Shown here in pieces: positions 47,747 to 48,000 of a stretch of DNA of 64,000 nucleotides. The position numbers and the translations under genes were made by a program. Positions within the stretch are counted from its first letter, which is position 1, and the number at the start of each line of letters is the position of its first letter. Location: the NCBI RefSeq assembly GCF_003334335.1, contig NZ_QOWQ01000012.1. One strand, given 5' to 3'. Below the pieces are notes generated by a model. That model was not told where the DNA came from and ran no database searches. It was given only the letters and a program-made list of their open reading frames with translations. The DNA comes from Escherichia coli. Its GTDB lineage: Bacteria; Pseudomonadota; Gammaproteobacteria; Enterobacterales; Enterobacteriaceae.

Positions 47747-48000
47747 CGTAGGCCGGATAAGGCGTTCACGCCGCATCCGGCATCCGAGCACCATTGCCTG
47801 ATGCGACGCTTACCCGTCTTATCAGGCCTACAAACTTGTGCCTGAACCGTAGGCCGGATAAGGCGTTTACGCCGCATCCGGCATCCGAGCACCATTGCCT
47901 GATGCGACGCTTACGCGTCTTATCAGGCCTACAAACCTGTGCCTGAACCGTAGGCCGGATAAGGCGTTTACGCCGCATCCGGCAGTCATGCGTCGATGCC
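47747..48000. repeat. Tandem BIME/REP array (~101-bp unit, ~2.4 copies)
   Basis: Unit cgtaggccggataaggcgtt[c/t]acgccgcatccggcatccgagcaccattgcctgatgcgacgcttac[c/g]cgtcttatcaggcctacaaac[t/c]tgtgcctgaac starts at 47747 and 47848, with a partial third copy from 47949. Confidence 0.85.

Follow-up and report, generated by a model that had tools for sequence, protein, structure and literature searches.

Catalogues of REPs and BIME-2 arrays in Escherichia coli K-12 go back decades, and strain variation in the number of tandem BIMEs has been published. In the nomenclature of Gilson, Bachellier and Hofnung, summarised by Ton-Hoang et al. (2012, PMC3333891), a BIME-2 is composed of z2 and y REPs that are inversely oriented, kept apart by short linkers and present in multiple tandem copies. 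The tandem copies are well conserved within a locus, and their number per locus varies among strains (PMC3333891). The REPs themselves are imperfect palindromes of 30-40 nt that bear a conserved GTAG at the 5' foot and a stem mismatch (PMC3333891). The TnpA-REP protein of K-12, described in the same paper, cleaves TGCC|TGAT and GGCC|TAC and recombines BIMEs in vitro (Ton-Hoang 2012, PMC3333891).

For the BIME-2 array REP325, two activities have been reported, partial termination that depends on Rho and stabilisation of mRNA (Harris 2026, bioRxiv 10.64898/2026.03.23.713779). According to the same study (10.64898/2026.03.23.713779), REPs between convergent genes accompany higher expression of both genes, and predicted bidirectional terminators contain nearly 40% of the convergent-gene REPs; the effects of individual REPs spread widely, and terminal REPs do not lengthen mRNA half-life in general. 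Gyrase cleavage sites are over-represented in BIME-2 elements, mainly in the y REPs and independently of transcription, with binding and cleavage in vivo observed for a subset of BIME-2 elements (PMC6379681).

Here we analyse an array of this type situated between ybaQ and copA. A literature search returned no experiment, transcript, gyrase or HU data set on this array, and a full-text search no paper joining ybaQ with extragenic palindromic elements. When copA and ybaQ were looked for in specific sources, the supplement of Harris 2026 contained just one copA expression row, that of RepRanger 2025 just a copA 5' RNA, and the examined text of the Topo-seq paper (PMC6379681) no mention of either; the 3'-end (Term-seq) literature yielded nothing usable for the locus.

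Structure of the array and its genomic context

The window, which is the whole 64,000-nucleotide stretch of E. coli DNA analysed, contains the array between two convergent genes (Table 1). Sequence comparison identified the window as E. coli K-12 MG1655 sequence and showed the analysed segment to be 100% identical to MG1655, with NC_000913.3 coordinates equal to window coordinates plus 460834, and in MG1655 terms the array occupies NC_000913 508581-508818. The names ybaQ and copA given to the flanking genes in a preliminary description of this DNA agree with the MG1655 annotation and the ORF listing. On the plus strand ybaQ ends at 47725, and copA, on the minus strand, has its stop codon at 48041-48043; the array lies wholly inside the shared 3' intergenic region, where it is entered by the ybaQ transcript from one side and by the copA transcript from the other. 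The RefSeq MG1655 feature table for the locus contains no repeat feature between ybaQ and copA. Open reading frames of 40-134 aa run across the array on both strands, traversing the repeated palindromes. Ordinary Rfam matches elsewhere in the window are sroB (ChiX sRNA, 46370-46453), the dnaX frameshift element (32522-32586) and the small SRP RNA (15622-15718).

Table 1. Features of the ybaQ-copA intergenic region and its flanks, in window coordinates.
Feature	Position	Strand	Basis or remark
ybaQ CDS, HigA-family HTH protein	47384..47725	+	MG1655 b0483, 508218-508559; ORF listing
22-nt leader, ybaQ stop to first REP, GGCCAAAACATCGCTTCATCTC	47726..47747	+	in all REP-bearing alleles, replaced in REP-less allele
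Y REP no. 1, GTAG and imperfect palindrome, loop variant TTCA	47748..47781	+	pattern match, 1 mismatch; DNA hairpin -12.1 kcal/mol, z -4.5
Inner 14-nt linker ATCCGAGCACCATT	47782..47795	+	array parsing
Z2 REP no. 1, inverted, ends CTAC	47796..47831	+	pattern match
Outer 17-nt linker AAACTTGTGCCTGAACC	47832..47848	+	array parsing
Y REP no. 2	47849..47882	+	exact pattern match
Inner linker, copy 2, identical to copy 1	47883..47896	+	array parsing
Z2 REP no. 2	47897..47932	+	exact pattern match
Outer linker, copy 2, AAACCTGTGCCTGAACC	47933..47949	+	array parsing
Y REP no. 3, terminal REP of the array	47950..47983	+	exact match; sole REP remaining in 113-bp allele
Right flank AGTCATGCGTCGATGCCAA...	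47984..48002	.	accompanies BIME in E. coli, E. albertii and E. whittamii
Non-REP hairpin directly after copA stop, no U-tract	48003..48026	-	folds; 10-bp stem here
copA, Cu+ exporting P-type ATPase	48041..50545	-	ORF listing and MG1655 annotation
Unit difference 1, Y loop	47767 C / 47868 T		
Unit difference 2, Z2 stem	47814 C / 47915 G		
Unit difference 3, outer linker	47836 T / 47937 C		

Self-comparison bore out the periodicity of about 101 bp that the preliminary description had reported. Tandem Repeats Finder returned one array, 47747-47984, with a period of 101, 2.4 copies, 97% matches, no indels and a score of 455, and an independent repeat search placed the copies in that register too, with starts at 47747, 47848 and 47949. 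Comparison of the two full units found three substitutions and no more, the number originally given for the units at 47747 and 47848. The truncated third copy at 47949 is also real, being identical over its first 36 nt (47949-47984), which make up one more Y REP. The sequence diverges afterwards; the end of the array is therefore at 47984, and not at 48000, to which the stretch had first been drawn.

Parsing with REP consensus patterns of 34 nt for Y and 36 nt for Z2 resolved five REP hairpins of alternating orientation, in the order Y-Z2-Y-Z2-Y; in 100 dinucleotide-preserving shuffles of the window, the expected number of Y or Z2 pattern matches was 0.00. The 101-bp unit consists of a Y REP of 34 nt, a linker of 14 nt, a Z2 REP of 36 nt and a second linker of 17 nt, the latter of the form AAAC(T/C)TGTGCCTGAACC. 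On the plus strand GTAG opens each Y and CTAC closes each Z2, so that neighbouring REPs are mutually inverted. The C at 47814 in the first Z2 breaks one stem pair, which the Rfam alignment marks as non-canonical. Around this same Z2 are the motifs TGCC|TGAT, at 47795, and GGCC|TAC, at 47825; each is present a single time per unit, at a spacing of exactly 101 nt.

Assignment to the BIME-2 class

We assign the element with high confidence to the BIME-2 class of the E. coli REP family, in the arrangement Y-Z2-Y-Z2-Y at the shared 3' region of ybaQ and copA. As for membership of the REP family, all five repeats begin with GTAG or end with CTAC and fold with a mismatch in the stem, the Y and Z2 segments match REP copies throughout the genome, a query containing the array has at least 32 matches per genome (median) across all 5,426 E. 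coli genomes, and the position of the array is extragenic, with further REP copies in the window at 29125 and 40610. As for BIME-2, the Y REPs in plus orientation alternate with inverted Z2 REPs, which at 36 nt have the length found in REP325; the linkers, of 14 and 17 nt, are short and do not contain the long L motif that carries the IHF site; and the units are in tandem, at 2.4 copies of 97% identity, with 0, 1, 3, 5, 7 or 9 REPs among strains.

The Rfam model RF02564 (naRNA4), which was built on the BIME-2 array REP325 and has a gathering score of 59.5 bits, matches the array twice on each strand, with 89.3 and 79.9 bits on the plus strand and 64.0 and 63.6 bits on the minus strand, the matches spanning 47751-47929 on both. 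The best of these, with 89.3 bits, covers the second Y and the second Z2 (47852-47929). The Y/Z2 parsing, the hairpin folds and the Rfam scores all uphold the preliminary description as a BIME/REP array; the element had been correctly observed, and it is of a kind already known, a well-described BIME-2. Elsewhere in the window, a single Y-Z2 unit with slightly degenerate REPs and a different inner linker, ATTTGGCTCTCGAT, is located at 40610-40693, and it also matches RF02564 above threshold (74.3 bits, 40613-40690).

A BIME-1 is present in the window at 29125-29217, where a Y REP, a 35-nt AT-rich linker of the L type (GAAACCGCAAGAATTCAATATATTGCAGGAGCGGT) and a Z1 REP of 29 nt (29189-29217) are arranged tail to tail. 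Because this BIME-1 displays the short Z1 form, the 36-nt form in the array is identified as Z2. The two classes belong to the same REP superfamily and both contain a Y REP. However, the partner REP is a 36-nt Z2 in the array and a 29-nt Z1 in BIME-1, the array linkers are 14 and 17 nt long while that of BIME-1 is about 35 nt long and binds IHF, and the array consists of tandem units, BIME-1 being single-copy. No match to the IHF consensus WATCAANNNNTTR was found in 47726-48040. On these grounds (Z2 partner, short linkers, tandem repetition and no IHF consensus in that interval), a reading as BIME-1 with an IHF site was rejected. The suggestion of IHF binding in the preliminary description falls with it, this property belonging to the long L linker of BIME-1. 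Its exclusion of a CRISPR array does hold: the 101-bp units are contiguous, the sequences between the REPs are themselves repeated, and there are no unique spacers between units.

Copy number among E. coli strains

To compare the locus among strains, a query consisting of the unique flanks only (300 nt of ybaQ and 300 nt of copA) was used. It matched 5,422 of 5,426 complete E. coli genomes, with both flanks in one place in 4,791. Allele frequencies were taken from a systematic, evenly spaced sample of 60 of the 5,422 genomes. The intergenic region was 57 bp long, without REPs, in 14 of the 60; 113 bp, with one REP, in 13; 214 bp, with three REPs, in 10; 315 bp, with five REPs (the K-12 type), in 13; 416 bp, with seven REPs, in two; and 517 bp, with nine REPs, in one. 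In the remaining seven genomes the ybaQ flank was unmatched. From strain to strain the array grows or shrinks by whole 101-bp units, and the copy-number variation anticipated in the preliminary description is seen directly in the genomes compared, in exact 101-bp steps. As REP-less alleles (about 23%) and single-REP alleles (about 22%) are common in the sample, the array is dispensable.

Allele structures were verified base by base in retrieved examples. The 113-bp allele consists of the leader, one Y REP and the right flank. In strain GF124.3, the lone full unit is an in-register chimera of units 1 and 2 of K-12, and in E. coli B unit 2 has been duplicated, giving seven REPs. Seven-REP alleles occur on two different flank haplotypes, those of B and AH04. 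AH04 (seven REPs) and PapRG-06-5 (nine REPs) carry a different flank haplotype and have more diverged units, which indicates that expansion happened more than once.

The REP-less allele, carried by B2-type strains (NC101, for example), does not represent a clean excision: the leader, array and right flank have given way to about 20 nt of unrelated sequence. In the retrieved REP-less locus that was compared (positions 377-433), the sequence to the left of the copA-proximal hairpin is replaced. The stem of this non-REP hairpin has 10 bp in REP-bearing alleles, compared with 13 bp (-13.0 kcal/mol) in the REP-less allele.

Some complete E. coli genomes, 631 of the 5,422 (about 12%), lack ybaQ between ybaP and copA, for instance N1131 and R32_14_1F. 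The gap between ybaP and copA in N1131 (locus 1071-1498) contains about 270 bp of GC-rich sequence that carries no annotation. This segment is a dispersed repeat, with a median of three places per genome at 90-95% identity, and gives a weak, sub-threshold match to Rfam TwoAYGGAY (31.5 bits versus 43).

Age of the element

Species-representative genomes were searched in one scan with a degenerate pattern for the 3' end of copA. The scan returned E. albertii, E. whittamii, one further Escherichia species and three more distant enterobacteria. In E. albertii and E. whittamii, which are without ybaQ, the copA stop is adjoined by a remnant of the inner linker, a Z2 REP, the outer linker, a Y REP and the right flank, as in E. 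coli. In the distant genera ybaP adjoins copA and there is no REP. E. albertii and E. whittamii have the element between copA and ybaP, which are in tandem; in E. coli, ybaQ is located between ybaP and the element, making the context convergent.

The occurrence of the element in E. albertii and E. whittamii implies that the BIME-2 predates the divergence of E. coli from both, and its occurrence there without ybaQ that its presence is independent of this gene. Judged from this distribution, the element is older than the species E. coli. The REP-less E. coli allele is then most simply interpreted as a later replacement.

Possible functions

Every REP of the array folds to a hairpin with an internal mismatch, with energies of -12.1 kcal/mol for Y and -8.3 kcal/mol for Z2 and z-scores of about -4.5 for both. 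The RNA of the whole intergenic region is structured far above shuffled sequences, with z = -7.6 for the plus strand and z = -7.8 for the minus strand. No terminator-like site was called on either strand of 47726-48040, nor any promoter-like site in this interval. A classical intrinsic terminator was rejected, as the terminator scan of the intergenic region was empty and no GC-rich hairpin is followed by a U-tract; an independent small RNA gene was rejected because both promoter and terminator scans were empty. Since neither gene has a terminator with a U-tract, the REP hairpins and the small hairpin next to copA are the only strong 3' structures available to the two transcripts.

The roles listed in the preliminary description (mRNA stabiliser or terminator, gyrase site, TnpA-REP target) are known from the literature for the REP family as a whole. 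By analogy with other REPs, the stable hairpins on both transcripts may block 3'-to-5' exonucleases, and they may stop readthrough in part, in a largely Rho-dependent way. An exonuclease barrier combined with a partial stop of this kind would allow the array to set the 3' ends of both the ybaQ and the copA mRNAs. At the DNA level, the Y REPs could be preferred gyrase cleavage sites, as in other BIME-2 elements. Such putative gyrase sites would be well placed to remove positive supercoils between the convergent transcription units.

The array might also lack a function of its own and be a leftover, whether neutral, selfish or prone to slippage, that is tolerated in a non-coding interval. We regard this as unlikely, albeit a reading of some weight. 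Its strength is that REP-less and single-REP alleles are common, that alleles carry anything from 0 to 9 REPs and that REPs have no general effect on mRNA half-life (Harris 2026). However, most E. coli, like E. albertii and E. whittamii, retain an identically flanked Y REP beside copA, REP hairpins are conserved genome-wide while linkers drift, and effects have been published for other REPs (Harris 2026; PMC6379681). Of a more speculative nature, and in our opinion doubtful, is the proposal that the series of 0-9 REPs forms a strain-level dial on 3'-end formation, stability or local supercoiling of copA, ybaQ or both, at a site otherwise constant, in which repeated expansions and contractions would be driven by the domesticated transposase TnpA-REP rather than by simple slippage.

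It is very improbable that the array is a gene for naRNA4-like, nucleoid-associated small RNAs that bind HU, bridge cruciforms and condense the chromosome. HU- and naRNA4-dependent DNA condensation has been reported, together with transcription of about 80% of REPs (Qian 2015, PMC4550694), and both units score above the RF02564 gathering score on both strands. However, RF02564 is in effect a generic detector of Y-linker-Z2 sequences, matching the window at 40613-40690 as well. The nucleoid-condensing role of REP325 is itself disputed, not having been reproduced by Harris 2026: deletion or overexpression of REP325 was without effect on nucleoid volume, and neither a stable ternary complex nor HU-dependent REP-REP contacts were observed, in a study that has an author, Sankar Adhya, in common with the original naRNA4 work. 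The naRNA4 model is ranked low here. As no promoter-like site was called in 47726-48040, any RNA from the array would be 3'-UTR readthrough and not the product of a separate gene.

The locus constitutes a natural allelic series, with 0 to 9 REPs, the same flanks and an inducible neighbour, copA, in which the debated dose dependence of REPs may be addressed with regard to termination, mRNA decay and gyrase recruitment. The 101-bp length polymorphism also provides a simple typing marker.

Amplification in place and proposed mechanism of copy-number change

Compared with BIME-2 units at other loci, those of the array are 87.3-89.3% identical to the units between yjjV and yjjW, whose outer linker is related to that of the array, and 76.7% identical to the single unit at window position 40609. 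REP hairpin sequences are conserved genome-wide, and the linkers drift. An identity of 97% within the locus, against 77-89% to units elsewhere, argues that the 101-bp unit was duplicated in place and not inserted twice. The preliminary description had called the array locally amplified, and the sequence comparisons support this: the unit was amplified in place. That the units arrived instead by separate transpositions of REP doublets (REPINs) through RAYT/TnpA-REP is improbable in the extreme, even though the Y-Z2 doublet at 47748-47831 can pair, REPIN-like, into a single long hairpin (-22.4 kcal/mol, z -4.8, against -20.4 kcal/mol for two separate hairpins) and TnpA-REP, which cleaves and joins BIMEs in vitro, can assemble tandem copies, because apart from these identities the linkers are constant across both units and all alleles of the locus, differ from those of REP325, yjjV-yjjW and window 40610, and the alleles follow exact 101-bp steps that include an in-register chimeric unit.

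For amplification in place, in-register misalignment of the 101-bp direct repeats, through replication slippage or unequal recombination, would lead to the gain or loss of units. The REP-associated Y1 transposase TnpA-REP possibly helps in changing the copy number. With its cleavage motifs 101 nt apart, the transposase model predicts products identical to those of misalignment. Both routes yield exact 101-bp steps, and sequence alone therefore does not separate them.

Comparison with known systems

Like the REPINs of Bertels and Rainey (2011, PMC3116915), the array contains an inverted REP doublet (about 84 nt) that can fold into one long hairpin, and the cleavage motifs of the E. coli RAYT are found once per array unit. 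No RAYT (tnpA-REP) gene was found in the examined part of the window. Growth of the array is tandem and local, whereas REPINs are dispersed.

Compared with REP325, located between yjdM and yjdN in MG1655, the Y REP is identical and Z2 differs by 1 nt, with a period of 100 bp there versus 101 bp here. The linkers are different and unit identity amounts to 84.5-85.4%. In REP325, 12 REPs separate genes that lie in tandem within one operon; the array described here has five REPs between convergent genes. The minus-strand inner linker of the array, AATGGTGCTCGGAT, resembles the REP325 linker AATGGTGCCGACT, but with Y and Z2 swapped, so the inner linker of the array is inverted relative to the REP types.

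The alternating, inverted y and z2 REPs, the short linkers, the tandem arrangement, the conservation within the locus, the strain-variable copy number and the position at a gene 3' end are all common to typical BIME-2 elements and to the ybaQ-copA array. There is no difference of substance between them; the linker variants of the array are specific to its locus.
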